Shown: positions 7,183 through 16,070 of the stretch, one piece after another | Layout: each line of letters begins with the position of its first letter | Numbering within the stretch: the stretch's first letter is position 1 | Assembly: GCA_963932905.1 (NCBI GenBank) | Contig: CAWVRN010000003.1 | Span: 1 to 64,000 of the forward strand | Direction of reading: 5' to 3' | Length of the DNA: 64,000 bases | Source: an uncultured Bdellovibrio sp. | Lineage (GTDB): Bacteria > Bdellovibrionota > Bdellovibrionia > Bdellovibrionales > Bdellovibrionaceae | Notes under the pieces: generated by a model | What the model saw: only the letters and a program-made list of their open reading frames with translations | The model's database searches: none | What the model was told of the DNA's origin: nothing | Made by a program: the position numbers and the translations under genes

Positions 7183-8406
7183 TTAAGTAAGCGAGTGATC
7201 CAAACCAGGTGATTTTTGAACCGATCCATATGGCAAACTGATCGAAAATTCGCTGCCTTGACCGATGCCCGCACTAGAAACTTGAATTTCACCTTGATGA
7301 GAATTAACAATACTTTTAGCGATAGTTAAACCTAAACCTAATCCACCATGAGATCGAGTTATATAGGCTTCTGTTTGACTAAATCGATCAAACAGTTTTG
7401 CTTGAAGATTTTTGTCAACCCCTGCGCCAAAATCTTTCACTTTAAATATTAAGCTTGGTCCTTGTTGAGCGAGTTCTAGAAAAATGCGATTGTGGTCGTT
7501 TGAAAACTTAATCGCATTATCAATCAAGTTGCCCATGGCCTGCCGCAACCGATCTGCGTCGGCATTGATCAAGGCTTGATTCAATTTTGAATTGAATACA
7601 ACCGAGATGTTTTTCTTCTGTGCCATCGGTAAATATTCAGCCAACGCAGCTCTAATCAAAGACACCAAATCGATTTCCTGTTTATGAACGGCAAACTTGC
7701 CCAAAACTATTTGCGAGGCATCCAGCAACCTATCGATTACTTGTCCTTGGGTTTTTGTGTTTCTATTGATCGCATCCATTCCCACGGGAACGAGTGATGG
7801 ATCAGCATCACGGTCCGATAGCATTTCTGACCAACCCATTATTGAATTTAGAGGTGTCCGTAGTTCATGCGATATCAGCATTAAAAATTCGTCCTTGGCT
7901 CGATTCGCCAATTCTAAATCGTTAACTCGCTCTTCTAACGATGACAGCAATTGTACGTTTTCGATCGCTACCGACGTCGTGTCGGCAATGGCTTGTAAAA
8001 TGGAGAGTTCTTCTTCGGTAGCCGTGTGCTTCTGCGCCCAATAGATTCCTATCGACGCGATGGGATCTGATTTTCTGACGGGCATCATAGCAAGACTTTT
8101 CACGAATGTCGGTCGATAAGCTTCGACGGGAATGCGATCATCTTGAAAAATGTCCGGAATGGCCACAGCTTGTTTATTCAACATCGCCCAACCACTGATA
8201 CACGCCGTCAGCGGAAACCGCTTTCCTTTCCATAAAGGTCCAATGGCGTCTTCGTCGACATAAAAGCAATAGCCGTTATCTTTCATCACAAACGTCGCCC
8301 CGTCAGCACCGGTTGCCGAACGAGCCGCTTTTCTGACGATATTAACTATTTCAGGGACACTTCTAACCTTAGAAAGGTCTTGCACAATTTTCACCAAGGA
8401 TTCCAT
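7183..8406 (-). CDS. GAF-domain sensor histidine kinase
   Basis: GAF region, SHELRTPL H-box, NLIDNAIKF, D.G.G, GGLGLGL. Confidence 0.92.
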   Translation of the reverse strand: MESLVKIVQDLSKVRSVPEIVNIVRKAARSATGADGATFVMKDNGYCFYVDEDAIGPLWKGKRFPLTACISGWAMLNKQAVAIPDIFQDDRIPVEAYRPTFVKSLAMMPVRKSDPIASIGIYWAQKHTATEEELSILQAIADTTSVAIENVQLLSSLEERVNDLELANRAKDEFLMLISHELRTPLNSIMGWSEMLSDRDADPSLVPVGMDAINRNTKTQGQVIDRLLDASQIVLGKFAVHKQEIDLVSLIRAALAEYLPMAQKKNISVVFNSKLNQALINADADRLRQAMGNLIDNAIKFSNDHNRIFLELAQQGPSLIFKVKDFGAGVDKNLQAKLFDRFSQTEAYITRSHGGLGLGLTIAKSIVNSHQGEIQVSSAGIGQGSEFSISLPYGSVQKSPGLDHSLT

Positions 8407-8595: not shown

Positions 8596-9372
8596 TTGGG
8601 GATAAAAGACCCCTTAGGAGATTTTATGAACCTAATTTTTGTAACGTTGCTTTTATCTTCCGTTGTTTCCTTTGCCGCTAACAAAGTGGTTCAAAAAGCC
8701 AGAGTCGTCGACGAAAAAGTAGTCGCCGCTGAAGGTTGTTCGATCACTGGCGATTACACTAATGCTGGTTACACAACCACTGAGTATAAATACACAGTGA
8801 CGATGAAAGTTAAACTTCTCCAAAAACAAGAACTTTATAACGTGAACGTTAAAAAGCCCCTTTTTGGTAAATTGCAAGAAACTGAAATTCCAAATTCTAA
8901 AAAAGCAGGGCCGGATAAAACAGTTCCGTCAACTCGGCAAATCACCTTCGTGGCTAGATTTCCAACAGAATATAATCGCCTAGCGTTACTTAAAGCGTGC
9001 GAAGACGAATCCCTATTCATCAACACTGGATCTTATCCTCCACCACCTCCAAAACTACCTGAGCCTCCGAAAAAAACTCCAGCTCCTGCAACTCCATCCA
9101 CTACGGCGCCTTCGACTACAACGAAGGAAACTCCAAGTTTACCAGGCCTTCCAACGCTACCAGAAACACCACCTACAAGTTCATCCTCAACTCCAGCTAC
9201 AGATTTATTTCCAATTGTGGTTTTACCGGGTAACCCAGCCGATACCACGTCTCCAGCGCTTCCTGTACTTCCTGATTTATCATCAACAGCAGTAACTCCG
9301 GAGACTAAGCCATCAGCCGCGACTACCAAAACAGAAGTCAAAGCCGACCCGAAACCAGAAGTTAAAAAGTAG
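8596..9372 (+). CDS. Secreted protein with Pro/Thr-rich C-terminal tail (true start probably ATG 8626)
   Basis: AGGAG before MNLIFV; signal peptide; low-complexity P/T/S tail. Confidence 0.7.
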   Translation: MGIKDPLGDFMNLIFVTLLLSSVVSFAANKVVQKARVVDEKVVAAEGCSITGDYTNAGYTTTEYKYTVTMKVKLLQKQELYNVNVKKPLFGKLQETEIPNSKKAGPDKTVPSTRQITFVARFPTEYNRLALLKACEDESLFINTGSYPPPPPKLPEPPKKTPAPATPSTTAPSTTTKETPSLPGLPTLPETPPTSSSSTPATDLFPIVVLPGNPADTTSPALPVLPDLSSTAVTPETKPSAATTKTEVKADPKPEVKK

Positions 9373-9491: not shown

Positions 9492-10427
9492 ATGTCAATT
9501 GGGGTCGGACTTTTAGTATCATTCATTTCAATTTCCTTGCTAGCCAACAATCGGATTCATTTTTCGACTGGCAGGACTTATCCTCCTTCGGTAACGTTAG
9601 AAACGTCGCTCCCCACACCGGCAAAAGTACAACAATACGGCGAATGCCATATTTTAGCTGCAGTGACCGCGGCCGAAGCCGCCTGTTTTCGCCACACTCG
9701 CAAAAAATTTTCGCTGTCTTCGGCTTTCCAATTCTACAGACACATCCGTGCGCAACTGGAGAATCCAAACAGTCGGTCATTTTTGACCAGATTTAATGAT
9801 GGCCAATTCTCGCAGAACGATGCCGGTATTTTTGAAACAACCCTGGAACGCATTCAAAATGACAATGTGATGTTAGAGTCAGAATACACCATGACGCAGT
9901 TTAATCAGGCTGCGACAACGGCGCTTAAAATAAGAAACCAGTATTGGGATCTTTATTTTTCGAAGAACAACCCTAATCAATTTGAATTTGAAAACAAAAT
10001 GAGAAAACAATTAACTGCGGACCTTGATGAATCGGTAAAAAGCGTAAACCCTCTCGTGATTTCAAAAGACGAAACCGGTTGGACTCAAATCGTTAGCAAA
10101 ATAGCCCGTCATCCACTTCAAGCCTGTGAGTTTCCAAAACTAAATATAATGCATTTTAAGGTAACGCCAGAACGCGCCGTCGCGCTGATCAACAATGGTA
10201 TCCCATTCATTTGCCAAACCAAATTGGGCGGAACTAGAGGTCAGCATGTTGTATTGTATGCCGGTTATAAACTTTCTCCGAGTCACCATGAAAACCTAAC
10301 CTTCAATGTTCGCGACTCTCGCTTGTCACGCCTAGTAGATACGGGATGGGCCCCTTACTGCGTTCGAGCAGTGGTTGTATTCAATCCCGAAGAACGTAAT
10401 ACGGTACTTAAGAGCATCAACTTATAG
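9492..10427 (+). CDS. Putative secreted papain-like (C1/C39-like) cysteine protease
   Basis: Q..GECH (oxyanion Gln, catalytic Cys), LS..F, QHVVLYAGY (His), F.VRDS. Confidence 0.6.
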   Translation: MSIGVGLLVSFISISLLANNRIHFSTGRTYPPSVTLETSLPTPAKVQQYGECHILAAVTAAEAACFRHTRKKFSLSSAFQFYRHIRAQLENPNSRSFLTRFNDGQFSQNDAGIFETTLERIQNDNVMLESEYTMTQFNQAATTALKIRNQYWDLYFSKNNPNQFEFENKMRKQLTADLDESVKSVNPLVISKDETGWTQIVSKIARHPLQACEFPKLNIMHFKVTPERAVALINNGIPFICQTKLGGTRGQHVVLYAGYKLSPSHHENLTFNVRDSRLSRLVDTGWAPYCVRAVVVFNPEERNTVLKSINL

Positions 10428-10447: not shown

Positions 10448-11944
10448 TTAAAAATTAACGGCAAATCCAAGCGACCCAGTGCTTTTAGATTCTTCTTTGC
10501 CGGCTTTAATGGATTCGACGCCCAAAATAATATCAAAATTAACCTTTGCCCCAACTGGAAAAAATCGAGTCCCAATATAAAGGTTAAACAATGAAGCACT
10601 GGTTGAAACGGCGTTATCACTGGCACTCGATAGCAATCCCGTCCGCGCGCCAATAAGCCATTCATTATTCCAATTTTCACGACCAGGGTAATTCCCCTCA
10701 CCACCGATAGACATACGACTGTATTTGACCGTTTCGTTCGTATCTTTAATTTTATGGTCCTGCCCACCCAAGTGTACAGATAACCGCCAGCGTCCTTTGA
10801 GCGCTTCCGTCGATGGCGACAACAAAAAGAATTCACCCAGAGTGGTGTTTTCTTCGTTATCTTTTGTAGCAGGTCGTGAGGCTAGCAATAGGCCAAATAA
10901 AAACTGAGGCTGCGCACCTTTCGCACGGACGGAAGGGAAAGATCGTTTTTCCCACGTTAAACTCTGTTCTTCGATTGCTTGCATTTGATTTTCAACGATT
11001 TCAATTTGCCCGTGACCGATTTGCGTTTCGCTAGTCAATGTCACGTCGTAATCTCCACGCGGAACGCTAAGAATCTTTTCTTCGCCTTTATTTTTATAGA
11101 ATTTAAAAAAGTTAATTCCTTTAGAGGACGCTAGAGTCAACTCACCTTGCGATTCTTTACTGAGCTGAATTTGCCCATTCACTCGCGCCGGGTAGGAAAC
11201 TACCAAAGCCCCCTGTCCTGATAACTGCGAATGAAATTCGGGACTCTGCACCCGACCGCCGGACACTGTGCTTTGAAATTTGGTTTGCGCGTAGACGTAA
11301 TTATACAGTTCATCGATCGTGACCAGTCCGTCGTTATTGGAATCGGCCTGGCCGTATAGACCTGTCACTAAATGGTAAGTAAAAATACTGCCTTTTAGTT
11401 TCTCGCTTTCATACGACAATTCGTTTCCAGAACTCGACGTTAAGATCACACTACCTGTTGGTTCATCCACGTTATACTGAACAAGCTCGATGGGCTTAGA
11501 TCTTTGAACTCCCTTTGCTTTCAGCGCACCCGAAAAACAACTATCCAAGATGACGATTTTTAGTTTTGACTTCATTCCACCAAGTAATTCATGAAACTTA
11601 GATTTAGTAATAGATCCATCACGCAAGTGAAGTCCATTTTCATTTGAATGGCCCGAAAAATAGAACATAAACTTCTGTGTCGTTTTTTTACTAAGAAGAC
11701 TCACAGTCTTATCAAACTCTTCCATGCTGGGGTTTTTTAAACTTGTGATGTTTTGCGCATCGACTTTTCCGGCAACTGTTAATGCCCGAAATAATCGCTG
11801 TGCATCCATCGAGGCGTAATCCAATTTTTTCTCGCTAGCGATTGTAGAATCTTCTGCACTCACAATCAAAACCTGCAAATCGTTCTTTTCTTGTGCGTAA
11901 ACATAGGGAGTTAGCCACAGTAGAAATAAAATCAATGATTTCAT
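10448..11944 (-). CDS. Secreted caspase-family (C14) protease with probable C-terminal beta-barrel
   Basis: Signal peptide; YFSGH (H99) and ILDSCFSG (C136); FT..LV.GL.G.AD.N.DG.VT..EL..YV; amphipathic beta-strand C-terminus ending LGFAVNF. Confidence 0.88.
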   Translation of the reverse strand: MKSLILFLLWLTPYVYAQEKNDLQVLIVSAEDSTIASEKKLDYASMDAQRLFRALTVAGKVDAQNITSLKNPSMEEFDKTVSLLSKKTTQKFMFYFSGHSNENGLHLRDGSITKSKFHELLGGMKSKLKIVILDSCFSGALKAKGVQRSKPIELVQYNVDEPTGSVILTSSSGNELSYESEKLKGSIFTYHLVTGLYGQADSNNDGLVTIDELYNYVYAQTKFQSTVSGGRVQSPEFHSQLSGQGALVVSYPARVNGQIQLSKESQGELTLASSKGINFFKFYKNKGEEKILSVPRGDYDVTLTSETQIGHGQIEIVENQMQAIEEQSLTWEKRSFPSVRAKGAQPQFLFGLLLASRPATKDNEENTTLGEFFLLSPSTEALKGRWRLSVHLGGQDHKIKDTNETVKYSRMSIGGEGNYPGRENWNNEWLIGARTGLLSSASDNAVSTSASLFNLYIGTRFFPVGAKVNFDIILGVESIKAGKEESKSTGSLGFAVNF

Positions 11945-12618
11945 GGAGCCTTCCTTAAACGAAACCCCGCATAAATACAGTCTTGAGCTTTCTTGTTTTT
12001 CCCATGGACGACATCGGTTATGAATTCACGATCTAGAACTAACTGACGACCCGTGTTTTCCATGTTTGGATTGGGACACACGATCACAATCAAGTGTTCC
12101 CCTTGGTTAGGTGCGGTCAGTTGAAAACTAGAGTCAAAACTTGCGGACACGCCGGCTTTCACGTTCAGTTTTCCTGACTCGATATCTTTTACGTCATCTA
12201 AAACTTTAAAATCTTTATCTGCCACAGTCCAGTAGGCAACCGAGTCTTGATCTGCAATAATCTTAACGCCGACCTTGTCACCATCCACAAGTTCGCTGGA
12301 TTCGGTGAACGGGCTGACGGTTTCATTGCGTTGCCAGTAGACACTGATTTGTGTTGATCCTTTGGCCGTGAACGTATCGTCGGATTGCCTTGGCAACACC
12401 AATACTAATGCTAACGATGCTATCGTTAATGCGGACAAACCGAAATACCATTGCTCTTTTATTTTGGCCCAGTGTGATTCCCGTTTTTTCGAAAGCCGCA
12501 ATGGTGGTAATTCCAATTTATTTATTTTATTCCACTCCTTGCGTTCAGCCTCATTCAACTGCGATGGATCTTCGGTGATAATACGCAAGTGTTTGGAAAA
12601 CAGCGATTGATCAGACAT
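11941..12618 (-). CDS. Single-pass putative anti-sigma factor with periplasmic DUF4384-like domain
   Basis: Overlaps both ECF sigma and caspase genes; short N-terminal domain, one TM, AKG, then L.DGD...V and SF.L....G.E.L.V pattern. Confidence 0.6.
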   Translation of the reverse strand: MSDQSLFSKHLRIITEDPSQLNEAERKEWNKINKLELPPLRLSKKRESHWAKIKEQWYFGLSALTIASLALVLVLPRQSDDTFTAKGSTQISVYWQRNETVSPFTESSELVDGDKVGVKIIADQDSVAYWTVADKDFKVLDDVKDIESGKLNVKAGVSASFDSSFQLTAPNQGEHLIVIVCPNPNMENTGRQLVLDREFITDVVHGKNKKAQDCIYAGFRLRKAP

Positions 12619-13129
12619 TTTGCTGCCTCCTTAATTTTTCTATTTTTTCATCAACCTTTTCTTGTAATCGATTAACCGTACGACGCGATATTTGCATCAC
12701 CTCGGCGACTTCGTCTTGAGTCAGTCCTTCCAAATTACGATACACAAATACCGCAGCCTCATCCGCATCAAATGAATGTGCTATTTTTTTCCATAATTCG
12801 TGAGCCTGAGCATTCGATTCCAAGTCCGTAGTTTCCGACATCACCGATTCCGCGCGGGCTTCATCCAATTCCAGGTGTGAATTGTTGTGATTACGGATCG
12901 AATCAATGGCTGAATTCGTGCAACATTTATAAACCCAGGCGTACGCCCGTTTCAAATCGGGAAATACCATTTTGGTTTGCCACATTTTGGTAAACACATC
13001 TTGCACTATTTCTTCGGCGATGGATCGGCTGACTAAATTTATGGTTTTAGCCAAAGCAGGTCCACCCAGTTTTGCATAAAGCATTTGAACTGTCCTCTCA
13101 TCACTGCAATCAATATTTGTTTCCTGCAA
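12611..13129 (-). CDS. ECF RNA polymerase sigma factor
   Basis: AEEIVQDVF, AWVY...TN.AID..R, region-4 HTH EGLTQDEVAEVMQISRRTV. Confidence 0.9.
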   Translation of the reverse strand: MQETNIDCSDERTVQMLYAKLGGPALAKTINLVSRSIAEEIVQDVFTKMWQTKMVFPDLKRAYAWVYKCCTNSAIDSIRNHNNSHLELDEARAESVMSETTDLESNAQAHELWKKIAHSFDADEAAVFVYRNLEGLTQDEVAEVMQISRRTVNRLQEKVDEKIEKLRRQQNV

Positions 13130-13197
13130 ACTTATACGCGCCTCACTCGATTAGCTTATAAGATAGCGATAATTTGTACACATTTCCTTCATCTATT

Positions 13198-13228
13198 AAA
13201 CGTTTGGTCCAGGCGTTTTGTGCCAAAA
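13198..13228 (-). promoter_or_regulatory. Putative ECF promoter TTTTGGCAC-N17-CGTTT for the sigma/anti-sigma/caspase operon
   Basis: Minus strand reads TTTTGGCAC aaaacgcctggaccaaa CGTTT; same boxes and spacing as the divergent copy. Confidence 0.6.
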
Positions 13229-13280
13229 AAAACACAAGTTTTTTCACCAATCTTTTCAATAGGTTATAAATTTTAATTAT

Positions 13281-13311
13281 TTTTGGCACTTTTCTGCCGC
13301 CTGGCCCGTTT
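13281..13311 (+). promoter_or_regulatory. Putative ECF promoter TTTTGGCAC-N17-CGTTT for the lipoprotein
   Basis: TTTTGGCAC ttttctgccgcctggcc CGTTT, then AGGAGG RBS and ATG 13334. Confidence 0.6.
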
Positions 13312-13333
13312 GTCTAATACAGGAGGAACTTTT

Positions 13334-14506
13334 ATGTTCTCAAAAAAAACGAAAACGATGTTACTAGTTGCTATAATTTCTCTACTGCACGTCGCTTGCG
13401 CTCCTAACAAAAATGACTCAAATGAAAACGATCCAGCTATCGAAGCTATGTCTAGCCAGTTAAAATCTATGGGTGATGAATTTCTGCCAGCATCTATATA
13501 TGACGATGGCCGCGCGTCTTCGTCTTCAAAAATTTCGGCTAATAAATTATCGACAAACACAAACCATCAACATGACGATATCTGTGCTGGTGTGGATTTC
13601 ATCGAATGCCAGCCTAGACTTATCCGCGCTTACCTACAAATGGGACGCGAAGGTGTTTACACAACTCAAAAAATCGTATCCGATGTAGCTCGCAGTTTAT
13701 CAGGAGTCGGCAATAATACGAGCGGCGAGTTCCGCAGTAACGAGAACGGTTATTCTATTTCGTACAATAAACGTTCATCAACTGATTTTGATTTCTTGAT
13801 CTTAGAAAACAATATATCGATCGGCCGCGTATCCGCACAAAACGGAAACTACAATGTGCAATTCGACTTAAACGTTATCGATAAAAACAAAGCCGATTCT
13901 AATGGTGGTAAAGTTGATATCCAAGTTAAGCTAACGGATAGCACCCATTGGCAGTCTCAAATTACGTTCTCGGGATTAAAATGTAACGTGAACAAACCTG
14001 ATGACCCAGAAACAGCTCGTATCTATGTCGTTAGAAATGGTGACATCTGGAATGCTCAATCTAGTTTTTACAATGGTATCGGCGCGCAGTACAACGCAAC
14101 CAAATCATGTTCAACTCCTGCTAGCGATGTCACAGGTGTAGTGATTTACACAAATCTAGTTGCCGATCGCACAGCAGCTAAAGCGGCGATGTACTTACTG
14201 CGCAGAAACGAACAAAGCGTAGCAAACTTACAAAACTTCGGTATCAACAACTACTGCCAAAACTACCCTGACTTGTGCCAATCTTTAGCCACAGCATCAG
14301 GTCAATCTACGGCTGCCGTTGCCACTTACTTAGGCGCACTACAAAATCCATACTGCGTACACAGAGGCAACGCACAAGTGTTCTTTAACTCTGACTGTTC
14401 AAATGTTTCAGCAGCGGTGGCACAAGCACCACTGTTAGCCAACACGACCTTCTTATCGCCTTATGAGTTTTATCGATTGAATATCTCGATTCCTAATCAA
14501 TTATAA
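13334..14506 (+). CDS. Cys-rich lipoprotein of unknown function
   Basis: AGGAGG RBS; lipobox HVAC; multiple Cys; followed by terminator. Confidence 0.8.
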   Translation: MFSKKTKTMLLVAIISLLHVACAPNKNDSNENDPAIEAMSSQLKSMGDEFLPASIYDDGRASSSSKISANKLSTNTNHQHDDICAGVDFIECQPRLIRAYLQMGREGVYTTQKIVSDVARSLSGVGNNTSGEFRSNENGYSISYNKRSSTDFDFLILENNISIGRVSAQNGNYNVQFDLNVIDKNKADSNGGKVDIQVKLTDSTHWQSQITFSGLKCNVNKPDDPETARIYVVRNGDIWNAQSSFYNGIGAQYNATKSCSTPASDVTGVVIYTNLVADRTAAKAAMYLLRRNEQSVANLQNFGINNYCQNYPDLCQSLATASGQSTAAVATYLGALQNPYCVHRGNAQVFFNSDCSNVSAAVAQAPLLANTTFLSPYEFYRLNISIPNQL

Positions 14507-14531
14507 TATAGATCCAAATACAATCTTGATG

Positions 14532-14559
14532 AAAGGGAGCTATGTTAGCTCCCTTTTTT
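14532..14559 (+). terminator. Rho-independent terminator
   Basis: AAAGGGAGCTA-tgt-TAGCTCCCTTT followed by T-run. Confidence 0.9.
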
Positions 14560-14597: not shown

Positions 14598-15122
14598 ATG
14601 GATGCACATTATCACAAAGTTATGAAGGCTCGCGAAGGAATCACGGACAAAGGCTCTCGACTCTATTTTGCATATTCAGGCATTTTAGATCGCGAAGCTT
14701 TTGATCAATGGCTTGAAGAACACAGCTATCAATTTTTTCAATTACCTGAAGGCCAAGTGGCCGAAGCTAAGGGTATTGATTTAATTTTTGATTTCCCATC
14801 ACGCTGGTGGGGCGGCCGTGTGGCTGGTCTTGTAGATAAAAATGGCGCCTCTGTGTTTGGTCGCCTATTTGAAATCCCCGCAGTGAACTGGCCAGTGGTT
14901 CAGCACAAAGAAGGCGTCGTCACTGGAATGTCGATCGAACGCACTGTTAAAGTGACAGTCGATGGCAAAGAATTCGAAGCAACCGCATTTGTGACATCTC
15001 CCGATCGTGCCAGCACCGATGGCCCAATCAGCCAGCGTTATATCGAGGCCCTAATCAGCGGAGCAAAACAAGCGCAACTACCAGAAAACTACATTTCAAG
15101 CTTGCGATCAAAAGCCGTCTAG
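14598..15122 (+). CDS. Gamma-glutamylcyclotransferase family protein
   Basis: LYFAYS..L, V.G.L.EI, ..KEG, PIS.RY...L..GA....LP..Y. Confidence 0.8.
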   Translation: MDAHYHKVMKAREGITDKGSRLYFAYSGILDREAFDQWLEEHSYQFFQLPEGQVAEAKGIDLIFDFPSRWWGGRVAGLVDKNGASVFGRLFEIPAVNWPVVQHKEGVVTGMSIERTVKVTVDGKEFEATAFVTSPDRASTDGPISQRYIEALISGAKQAQLPENYISSLRSKAV

Positions 15123-15197: not shown

Positions 15198-16070
15198 ATG
15201 GAAATATTTGAATTACGGTATTTTATAGCGGTGGCACAGAACGAAAACATTCATCGTGCATCTGAAGTATTGAATGTATCACCAGGATCGCTGAGTAAAG
15301 CTATTTCTCGCCTAGAAGACGAATTATCAGTTTCGTTGTTTTACAGACAAGGTCGCAACATCCGCCTGACCCCTGAAGGTATTGCCTTAAAAAAGCGCGC
15401 TACCCAAATAGTACAGCTCGAAGAAGACGCTAAGATTGAACTCAGCGGCGAAAAAGGCAGTCTTAACGTGGTCATATCTGCTGAAGAAATTTTGCAGACT
15501 CAATTTGGGGTCAATTTGTCGGAGGCAATCAACAAAACCTATTCAGCATCACGCATACAATTTCTAACTCGTTCGGAAGATAAAGTGATTCAACAAGTTT
15601 TAGATGGAGAAGCTCACTTCGGTATTCTTACGGGCGAAGTACCTCAAGGTTTGAAATCAAAGACTCTATCCAAAGTGGAATTCAAAACATGCGCTTCAAA
15701 CAAGCATCCTTTGTTTAAAAAATTCTCGCAAAACGCGAAGATCCCAGTGGGAGATATTTTAAAACATGCGTTTGTATCACCAGATTCAGCTATGTTAGGA
15801 AAAATTACAACTATGGCGTCTTTGGACGGTTGGCGCGACGACAAATTTCCACGGCAAATAAAATATCGAGCCTGTGGACTAAAGATTATGGAACAGTTGA
15901 TATTAAGAGGCCAGGCACTGGCCTACCTTCCTGACTACTATGTCAATGAGTTAAATTTGATTTCGCTGAACGTGTCCGGCTGCCCATACAGCTGCCATCA
16001 AACTGTAAAATTAATTTGCAGAGACCCCGATGCTTTAGGTTGGATGAATCATGTTTGGAGCCAAATTTAA
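15198..16070 (+). CDS. LysR family transcriptional regulator
   Basis: LRYF.AVA......AS..L.VS..SLS..I..LE.EL...LF.R.GR...LT..G. Confidence 0.95.
   Translation: MEIFELRYFIAVAQNENIHRASEVLNVSPGSLSKAISRLEDELSVSLFYRQGRNIRLTPEGIALKKRATQIVQLEEDAKIELSGEKGSLNVVISAEEILQTQFGVNLSEAINKTYSASRIQFLTRSEDKVIQQVLDGEAHFGILTGEVPQGLKSKTLSKVEFKTCASNKHPLFKKFSQNAKIPVGDILKHAFVSPDSAMLGKITTMASLDGWRDDKFPRQIKYRACGLKIMEQLILRGQALAYLPDYYVNELNLISLNVSGCPYSCHQTVKLICRDPDALGWMNHVWSQI

Follow-up and report, generated by a model that had tools for sequence, protein, structure and literature searches.

A sigma factor, a single-pass anti-sigma factor and a caspase-like protease with a predicted outer-membrane barrel form a candidate trans-envelope signaling module in Bdellovibrio

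Why is a secreted caspase-like protease with a predicted outer-membrane barrel encoded together with a sigma factor of the extracytoplasmic function (ECF) type and a membrane-spanning partner of the anti-sigma type? To our knowledge, the function of most bacterial caspase homologues is not known. The question is raised by a locus of a Bdellovibrio sp. (assembly GCA_963932905.1, contig CAWVRN010000003.1), found at positions 10448-14506 of a window of 64,000 nt, the window being the whole stretch of DNA that was analyzed. A sequence-only reading of this DNA had noted three overlapping genes, for an ECF sigma factor, a bitopic protein and a signal-peptide caspase, and had interpreted them as a trans-envelope signaling system in which the caspase, borne by a barrel that acts as the sensor, cleaves the anti-sigma factor and a divergent lipoprotein is the output. 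All four genes, the divergent one included, were found in place, so that the observation itself stands, while the interpretation finds partial support. Three of the four refuting conditions named by that reading were examined in silico, and none came out against it. Very probably, the three proteins constitute one functional module with a periplasmic, barrel-anchored caspase; the full mechanism, in which the caspase serves as site-1 protease of its cognate anti-sigma factor, the sigma factor is released and its promoters are activated, is assigned a probability of roughly 0.5.

The three genes lie on the minus strand, as do all features described within them. The gene for the ECF (group 4) sigma factor (12611..13129, 172 aa, TTG start) overlaps by 8 nt with that for the single-pass anti-sigma factor (11941..12618, 225 aa), which in turn overlaps by 4 nt with the gene for a secreted C14 metacaspase-like protease carrying a C-terminal outer-membrane barrel (10448..11944, 498 aa). 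The sigma factor consists of regions sigma-2 and sigma-4 only, and its assignment rests on matches above cut-off to Sigma70_r2 (28.3 bits, cut-off 24), to the corresponding region 4 model (31.8 bits, cut-off 24.1) and to TIGR02937 (65.7 bits, cut-off 42.9); none of the specific ECF group models reached its cut-off for this protein in a scan with NCBIfam-type models. The genome of 4.55 Mb contains a single copy of the sigma-anti-sigma-caspase module, along with 13 sigma-70/ECF-type matches above cut-off genome-wide.

The sequence-only reading had proposed looking for conservation of the neighborhood across Bdellovibrionota and Myxococcota, and the triad does recur there. At least 565 caspase relatives were found in a scan of one genome per species, and the best 80 loci, from Bdellovibrionales, Myxococcota, Spirochaetota (many of them Treponema) and a few Proteobacteria, were analyzed; the alignments comprise 81 caspases. 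With adjacency called by hidden Markov models iterated on the open reading frames (ORFs) of these 80 loci, an anti-sigma homologue is adjacent to the caspase gene in 71 and a sigma gene in 64. By our own reading, there is no sequence upstream of the caspase gene in five of the nine loci that lack the anti-sigma gene and in 12 of the 16 that lack the sigma gene. The usual order is sigma, anti-sigma, caspase, and where both a sigma and an anti-sigma gene are present (64 loci), the latter mostly follows the former directly; a Kofleriaceae group has the order caspase, sigma, anti-sigma, and one locus (L011) is divergent. While the three genes remain together, what lies beside them depends on the lineage: Myxococcaceae, for instance, have a DUF2807 gene there, and Treponema has HSP90. 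The presence of the same triad in dozens of loci from several phyla thus indicates a gene grouping beyond chance. In a reciprocal scan of three other genomes, which hold five, one and seven copies, each of the 13 anti-sigma homologues has a caspase homologue at a distance of no more than ~600 nt. In myxobacteria, 5-7 or more copies are found in one genome, and several cognate sets per genome are the pattern expected of signaling modules. The DUF2807 (head GIN domain) gene of the Archangium locus L030 (3931-4641, plus strand; 102.3 bits) and of five other Myxococcaceae/Archangium loci lies on the same strand directly upstream of the sigma gene and is a lineage-specific fourth gene of the module. 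Several other clustered "conserved neighbors" were discarded as antisense ORFs overlapping true genes.

The AlphaFold2 model of the anti-sigma protein, with a mean predicted local distance difference test score (pLDDT) of 82, has two N-terminal, presumably cytoplasmic helices (residues 6-15 and 23-34), a membrane helix (aa 49-74, 12397..12474, called as helix by DSSP in the model), a flexible linker (75-89) and a predicted periplasmic beta-sandwich (90-220); the pLDDT is ~90 over the N-terminal helices and falls below 50 at residues 78-81 of the linker. The window protein has no match in Pfam or NCBIfam and no Cys/His zinc motif in its N-terminal sequence, and its profile gave matches at chance level against PDB sequences. 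A fold search with the sandwich returned generic immunoglobulin (Ig)/macroglobulin-type domains at Z ≤8.4. The family is very large, a profile search having retrieved 8,368 cluster representatives at E ≤0.001, 5,858 at 1e-10 and 2,005 at 1e-30, and nearly all of the best 150 relatives are 220-300 aa long. Among relatives, the N-terminus of an Archangium protein scored 25.5 bits against the "antisigma" model NF052375 (cut-off 100), and in proteins from other phyla DUF4384 (PF14326) was matched at 27.2 bits (cut-off 27) in locus L013, at 22.2 in L026, at 17.5 in L014 and at 14.2 in L022, with no match in L030; a repeat-bearing relative (P0136) reached 60.4 bits for the same domain. In another relative (P0216), sigma region 2 precedes the anti-sigma part, an arrangement that may be a gene-call fusion.

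The third protein is a caspase in its predicted fold and in active-site residues. A signal peptide (aa 1-17, 11894..11944; N-terminus MKSLILFLLWLTPYVYA, ending in VYA) is followed by the caspase domain (aa 23-240, 11225..11878), which matches PF00656 (Peptidase_C14) over aa 37-241 at 54.9 bits against a cut-off of 21.4; a hydrophobic N-terminus is found in the caspase relatives as well. An AlphaFold2 model computed with 23 relatives as input has a mean pLDDT of 79, rising to ~90 across residues 345-498. In structure comparison, the modeled caspase domain matched caspase-3 with Z 21.8 (root mean square deviation (rmsd) 3.1, 203 residues aligned), metacaspase-4 with Z 21.5 and MALT1 with Z 20.8; over caspases, metacaspase-4, MALT1 and legumain together, Z lies between 19 and 22, and Foldseek gave E 1.8e-10 against caspases. 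The catalytic residues H99 (11648-11650) and C136 (11537-11539), which the sequence-only reading had described as intact, are kept together with D134 in 80 of the 81 aligned family members, the exception being a truncated ORF. Behind the caspase domain, a middle beta-sandwich domain (aa 250-335, 10940..11197) is predicted, with model strands at 256-333. C136 belongs to a DSCxSG motif that aligns with metacaspase-4 and GSU0716, and on the strength of this alignment and of the conserved [KR]-G motifs described below, the protease is proposed to be Lys/Arg-specific, with a basic P1 residue. Orthocaspases, too, cut behind basic residues (PMC6426788). The N-terminal extensions of caspase ORFs in four high-GC loci (L040, L071, L012 and L057) contain no extra Pfam domain and are probably over-extended ORFs.

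How the protease is held in the envelope is indicated by its C-terminal region, for which the sequence-only reading had proposed a beta-barrel ending in Phe. Residues 343-498 (10451..10918; 156 residues, C-terminus LGFAVNF) are indeed predicted to form an eight-stranded barrel, modeled as eight long hairpin-connected strands over aa 349-497, and among solved structures they match NspA (Z 16.5, rmsd 3.0, 146 aligned); other eight-stranded barrels matched are PagL (Z 16.2), the N-domain of OprF (Z 15.8) and OmpA (Z 12.4-14.9), as well as OmpW and OprH. The last residue is aromatic in 36 of 74 complete caspase relatives and aromatic or aliphatic in 57. In eight-stranded barrels such as OmpA, OmpX and NspA, the N- and C-termini are both on the periplasmic side, and the protease should therefore face the periplasm, its caspase domain predicted to hang beneath the outer membrane. 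The part of the proposal that found no support is the barrel as a sensor: a barrel of the NspA/OmpA type is more likely a mere membrane anchor. In two caspase relatives of 700-800 aa, from Treponema bryantii (L026) and Archangium (L030), longer C-terminal regions match the NCBIfam "LA_2272 family surface repeat" at up to 51.3 bits and the "VC2662 family" below cut-off, and their membrane part may differ from the eight-stranded barrel of the window protein. Treponema caspases have a long acidic linker past the [KR]-G site and the C-terminal end GFKIK.

The sole candidate input feature found is an EF-hand-type loop inside the caspase domain (DSNNDGLVTIDE, aa 201-212, 11309..11344), which lies between helices 187-199 and 210-227. 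The loop satisfies the pattern D-x-[DNS]-x-[DNS]-G-x-[ILV]-x-x-x-E with helices on both sides and scores 13.8 bits against Pfam EF-hand_1 (cut-off 25.4), no EF-hand model of Pfam being matched above threshold. Its key positions are nearly invariant: D201 in 81/81 caspases, D205 in 80/81, V/I208 in 81/81 and E212 in 81/81. The loop suggests that Ca2+ may be an input.

Beyond gene order, the protease and the anti-sigma factor have a short motif in common, R-hydrophobic-K/R-G. Nothing else in the anti-sigma family is conserved as strongly as this motif, which lies in the flexible stretch past the membrane helix. In the alignment of anti-sigma proteins from the analyzed loci (71 rows, one of them gapped at the K-G column, with the chimeric L067 left out), K is present in 70/70 and G in 69/70, at a median of 16.5 residues past the membrane helix. 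Across 148 independent cluster representatives, both K and G are kept in 147, R occupies P3 in 129, and P2 is I, L or V. In the window protein, the site is K86-G87 (TFTAKGS, 12358..12363), situated in the linker three residues ahead of the first strand, and it is the proposed site-1 cleavage site.

The caspase carries the same motif twice, each time in a segment of low model confidence. K144-G145 (LKAKGV, 11510..11515), a proposed autoprocessing site in a disordered loop past the catalytic Cys, is conserved as K in 79/81 and G in 79/81 sequences, and the pLDDT is below 50 over residues 137-160. K342-G343 (VRAKGA, 10916..10921), a proposed self-release site in the disordered tether between the sandwich and the barrel, is basic at position 342 in 79/81 sequences (46 with R, 33 with K) and has G343 in 78/81, with a pLDDT below 50 over residues 337-343. 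R is common at P3 of both caspase sites, and in the window proteins all three sites (K86, K144 and K342) read A-K-G. A position matrix built from the 148 anti-sigma sites was scored on the 81 caspases and on shuffled sequences. Its top match falls on one of the two caspase K-G loops in 63/81 proteins (45 on the first loop, 18 on the second), and at least one of the two best matches does so in 73/81; the median top score is 10.6 bits, as against 2.9 in the shuffles. For the window caspase, the best match is the K342 site, with 11.5 bits. It is this R-x-K/R-G motif, common to flexible segments of the caspase and the anti-sigma factor, on which the proposal of cleavage is based.

The sigma gene is separated by 204 nt from the divergent lipoprotein gene (13334..14506, plus strand, 390 aa), and this intergenic stretch contains two copies of TTTGGCAC-N17-CGTT. 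One (13199..13227, minus strand), 70 nt ahead of the TTG start, is a putative ECF-type promoter of the sigma operon; the other (13282..13310, plus strand) points away from it, 23 nt ahead of the lipoprotein ATG. A looser form of the pattern occurs twice in the window against an expectation of 0.13, a count of two being reached in 1/100 shuffles. Both copies recur in orthologous Bdellovibrionales loci: L001, L005 and L006 keep the one on the lipoprotein side, which in L010 differs by a single change (TGGCCC), and L001 and L003-L006 have GGCAC-N17-CGT upstream of their sigma gene. Genome-wide, the 8+4-base pattern occurs six times against none for a reversed control, and a shorter version six times against three. 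A sigma-54 reading of TGGCAC was rejected, as the second element is CGTT at a distance of 17 nt and the spacing is not that of a -12 TTGC element; an ECF-type bipartite promoter fits better.

The lipoprotein had been described as Cys-rich and as having its own terminator, and both features are present. Its signal sequence ends in a Cys that is invariant in 5/5 orthologues, and eight further Cys are likewise invariant down to 28% identity, making nine in all; a 12-bp stem followed by a T run (14531..14557, plus strand) forms an intrinsic terminator past the gene. Its start is taken as ATG 13334, which has a good ribosome-binding site, and not as TTG 13283. Orthologues were found solely in L001, L005, L006 and L010, each divergent from the sigma gene; the family has no match in Pfam or NCBIfam, and a protein-atlas search returned unnamed clusters only. 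The conserved lipoprotein-side copy of the sigma-operon promoter motif argues for the lipoprotein as an output, as the sequence-only reading had supposed, and the gene is a probable member of the regulon. Four motif sites lie outside the window, two of which have no downstream ORF. At a third (contig C4, 43467-43495, minus strand), the copy of TTTGGCAC-N17-CGTT stands 25 nt before a lipoprotein gene (P0093; locus L084, 296-1477, minus strand) encoding 393 aa with the lipobox LISC and a weak glycosyl hydrolase 53-like match below cut-off; it is a candidate regulon member. The remaining site (contig C1, 364618-364646, minus strand) stands 16 nt before a 779-aa ORF within an apparent operon, and an 83-aa sigma-4-like ORF lies ~1 kb upstream there.

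Most likely, the locus belongs to a large family of three-gene modules for envelope signaling, with a beta-sandwich, possibly akin to DUF4384, as the periplasmic part of the anti-sigma factor. Taken together, these features suggest the following sequence of events, which we infer in every proteolytic step as well as in the Ca2+ input, the binding of the sigma factor by the anti-sigma factor and the use of the promoter. In the resting state, the anti-sigma factor would keep the sigma factor at the inner membrane, while the protease would wait as a zymogen beneath the outer membrane. Upon activation, possibly gated by Ca2+ through the EF-hand, the Lys/Arg-specific protease would cut after the basic residue of R-hydrophobic-K/R-G. 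A cut in its own loop past the catalytic Cys (K144-G145) would mature it, and one in its own tether (K342-G343) would release it from the outer membrane; such self-release from the barrel would explain how a protease tethered at the outer membrane gets to a cleavage site near the inner one. Site-1 cleavage would then be the cut in the juxtamembrane linker of the anti-sigma factor, at K86-G87. The shortened anti-sigma factor would be removed by an RseP-type site-2 protease, and a protease of this type (M50) is encoded in the genome. Finally, the freed sigma factor would transcribe from TTTGGCAC-N17-CGTT its own operon, the divergent lipoprotein gene and probably the second lipoprotein gene on another contig. 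What the analysis shows, in silico, is which folds the domains are predicted to have, that the triad is conserved, and that the motifs and the copies of the promoter exist.

Several points weigh against it. The N-terminus of the window anti-sigma factor is shorter than that of most relatives and matches no anti-sigma model, the relatives themselves reaching 25.5 of the 100 bits called for by NF052375; DUF4384 is absent from the window protein (E ≤0.1), and of five relatives tested for it, one reaches the cut-off. The K-G pair of the anti-sigma factor could have a structural role, given that the sandwich begins only three residues further on, and in the window proteins the P3 residue is T, not R, at this site and K at the K144 site of the caspase. 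As for the matrix, the shuffles reach 9.8 bits at their 95th percentile, near the observed median of 10.6, the top match lies elsewhere in 18/81 caspases, and the test was designed after the K-G pairs had been noticed, so that it quantifies these pairs and is not an independent confirmation. On the promoter side, TGGCAC-N16/17-CGTTT (with no T run) is not enriched genome-wide (six against eight in the control), and upstream of the sigma gene the motif was seen in six of 63 scanned loci, with none outside Bdellovibrionales except L030, probably by chance. Four loci with ample flanks (L040, L061, L071 and L080) lack an adjacent sigma and anti-sigma gene and still keep the [KR]-G of the caspase. 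The module is rare in Bdellovibrionota, being found in four of 201 sampled genomes, the source genome included, and in none of 20 from the same family. Finally, no fused anti-sigma-caspase protein was found among the longer relatives of the anti-sigma profile, which is weak evidence.

Other roles of the caspase are conceivable. It may be an output rather than a regulator, the sigma pair sensing an envelope signal through housekeeping site-1 proteases and inducing its own operon, whose caspase breaks down proteins that are foreign or belong to the periplasm, or acts with the induced lipoproteins to remodel the envelope. The caspase gene is the last of an autoregulated operon, the product would sit on a short outer-membrane tether far from a site ~12-16 residues above the inner membrane, and the four loci just named retain it with no adjacent sigma/anti-sigma pair, all of which would suit an output. 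The outputs of ECF factors, however, usually vary by lineage, and here it is the caspase that stays constant while the other neighbors change; the pairing of 13/13 anti-sigma homologues with a caspase of their own in three genomes points the same way, and the motif common to the substrate-like loops of both proteins would be left unexplained. We regard a role as output as a real possibility, if a rather unlikely one. The shared motif could instead reflect contact, with the caspase as a binding partner or co-regulator whose sandwich or active site holds the periplasmic domain of the anti-sigma factor through K-G as a pseudo-substrate, a trans-envelope contact that is lost or gained, for instance upon perturbation of the envelope, as the signal and another protease making the cut. 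An outer-membrane anchor paired with an inner-membrane partner is the geometry of envelope-contact sensors such as Rcs, with RcsF acting on IgaA, and RseB on RseA may be compared. This parallel, the beta-sandwich domains and same short motif in both proteins, and the resemblance of the anti-sigma sandwich to macroglobulin/Ig-type domains, limited as it is to Z ≤8.4, would all accord with binding. Yet H99, C136 and D134 are conserved in 80/81 proteins, which argues for an active enzyme rather than a pure binder, and the motif is also present in two of the protease's own flexible loops; we consider this reading clearly unlikely.

Least probable, and very improbable in our view, is a module for cell death or defense, in which the caspase would be an executioner that damages the cell's own envelope upon attack by phages or predators and the sigma factor would supply expression only. 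Bacterial caspase homologues are often discussed under programmed cell death (PMC3501461), the spread of the module within the phylum is patchy, and both CRISPR type III-E and the defense island of DdvS/DdvA have caspase-like proteases linked to ECF factors (PMC11506125; bioRxiv 10.1101/2022.08.17.504292). Against this, no defense genes were seen among the conserved neighbors, the PADLOC library not having been searched; the 5-7 or more copies in myxobacterial genomes fit sensing better than suicide; and the outputs identified are lipoproteins. Cleavage of the anti-sigma factor by its neighboring caspase remains the preferred reading, at the even odds given above.

Beyond the single locus, one bacterial caspase family appears tied one-to-one to a sigma/anti-sigma switch. 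If the cut at the shared motif is real, it would define a new class of site-1 protease for ECF signaling, account for numerous "hypothetical" operons of Bdellovibrionota, Myxococcota and Spirochaetota, Treponema among them, and offer a simple, orthogonal protease-gated transcription switch. A wider proposition, possible yet doubtful and put forward tentatively, is that the caspases of this family are dedicated site-1 proteases of the very large family of ECF anti-sigma factors, held ready beneath the outer membrane, switched on by calcium through the EF-hand and freeing themselves at the same R-x-K/R-G motif that they cut in the anti-sigma factor. Were this so, the caspase cascade would read out the width and integrity of the periplasm, or envelope Ca2+, and the caspase fold would have served signaling, and not cell death, as one of its ancient roles.

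Convergent in the window with the caspase gene, and separated from it by 20 nt between the stop codons, is a gene for a secreted 311-aa protein (9492-10427, plus strand) with a Peptidase_C39_2-like match of 17.7 bits, below cut-off, which is not kept beside the module in related loci. It is preceded by a gene for a secreted 258-aa protein (8596-9372, plus strand) without a family match, whose C-terminal half is a Pro/Thr/Ser-rich low-complexity tail, and by a minus-strand gene (7183-8406) whose product resembles a soluble GAF-type sensor histidine kinase, judged from the H-box HELRTPLNS and ATPase motifs. Directly past the lipoprotein terminator lies a gene for an AIG2-like (gamma-glutamyl cyclotransferase-like) protein (14598-15122, plus strand; PF13772, 67.5 bits), followed by one (15198-16070, plus strand) whose product has the look of a LysR-type regulator from its N-terminal helix-turn-helix sequence. 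An apparent anti-sigma-caspase fusion in locus L067 proved to be an artefact, the ORF having been read across a run of N, and a BLAST cluster link that would have made the anti-sigma sandwich and the caspase protein homologous was dropped, as it ran solely via this chimera.

Operons combining sigma factors with metacaspases have been noticed before. According to the accessible part of a survey of metacaspases (Asplund-Samuelsson et al. 2012, PMC3501461), four of the five M. xanthus metacaspases are in operons with sigma-70-family factors, and such operons also occur in Anaeromyxobacter, Haliangium, Sorangium, Ralstonia and Fibrobacter; very probably, these are operons of the same kind as the module. 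That part of the survey treats co-occurrence only and contains no anti-sigma factor, barrel, motif, promoter or mechanism, nor operons from Bdellovibrionota or Spirochaetota. Our searches turned up no paper in which a metacaspase, an anti-sigma factor and an outer-membrane anchor come together, and no mechanistic study of the sigma-metacaspase operons. The ECF reclassification (PMC7826278) has no caspase, Peptidase_C14 or PF00656 in its main text and the part of its supplement that was available, and later group descriptions may bear on this claim; ECF54 has been linked to CHAT proteins in Actinobacteria (PMC7826278, PMC8999054), a different context. New here are the R-hydrophobic-K/R-G motif of the anti-sigma factors, the same motif, nearly invariant, in two caspase loops, the invariant EF-hand-type loop and the divergent promoter copies, with a third copy ahead of another lipoprotein gene.

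Closest among characterized systems is DdvS/DdvA of Myxococcus xanthus, whose anti-sigma factor carries a periplasmic TPR-CHAT part that has a His-Cys dyad and is proposed to cut itself before RseP acts (PMC11506125). Both systems thus have an ECF sigma factor, a single-pass anti-sigma factor and a periplasmic caspase-family domain with a His-Cys dyad, with a cut proposed ahead of RseP, and the DdvA structure (8rot_B) matches the window caspase domain with Z 10.2. The TPR-CHAT part of DdvA is fused to the anti-sigma factor, which is dimeric and has a zinc-binding (CHCC) cytoplasmic domain; in contrast, the module has a separate C14 protease in the outer membrane and an anti-sigma factor with a small sandwich and no zinc motif, and its outputs are lipoproteins, as against the cyclic oligonucleotide-based antiphage signaling system (CBASS) and CRISPR for DdvS/DdvA. 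The type III-E craspase (Csx29-Csx30-RpoE) cuts Csx30, which holds an ECF sigma factor, and some Csx30 C-terminal domains are DUF4384 (bioRxiv 10.1101/2022.08.17.504292). It resembles the module in its caspase-like protease, in the cut in a flexible linker, which for the module is proposed, and in the ECF sigma factor; DUF4384 is also the family matched by relatives of the anti-sigma factor. Unlike the module, it is cytoplasmic and RNA-activated, uses a TPR-CHAT protease and has neither a membrane anchor nor a barrel. Metacaspases, orthocaspases and MALT1 share with the window caspase the fold and the DSCxSG-type site, and an Ig-like domain follows the caspase domain as in MALT1; the window protein differs from them in being secreted, in the EF-hand-type loop inside its caspase domain and in its C-terminal outer-membrane barrel.

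Two classical envelope systems can be set beside the module. In FecA/FecR/FecI, an outer-membrane protein, an inner-membrane anti-sigma factor and an ECF sigma factor are likewise encoded together, and the outer-membrane protein is a 22-strand TonB-dependent transducer. A Pfam scan found no match to Plug, TonB_dep_Rec, STN or FecR in the module proteins; the barrel has eight strands as against 22, there is no plug, signaling domain or FecR domain, and the module is not a structural relative of TonB-type cell-surface signaling. The sigma-E pathway (RseA/RseB/DegS/RseP) and related cases of regulated intramembrane proteolysis are similar in outline: a single-pass anti-sigma factor first receives a site-1 cut on its periplasmic side, and RseP acts next. 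There, the site-1 protease is DegS, a serine protease that the inner membrane anchors, whereas the presumed site-1 protease of the module is a caspase-fold cysteine protease whose anchor is in the outer membrane and whose gene accompanies those of its sigma pair.

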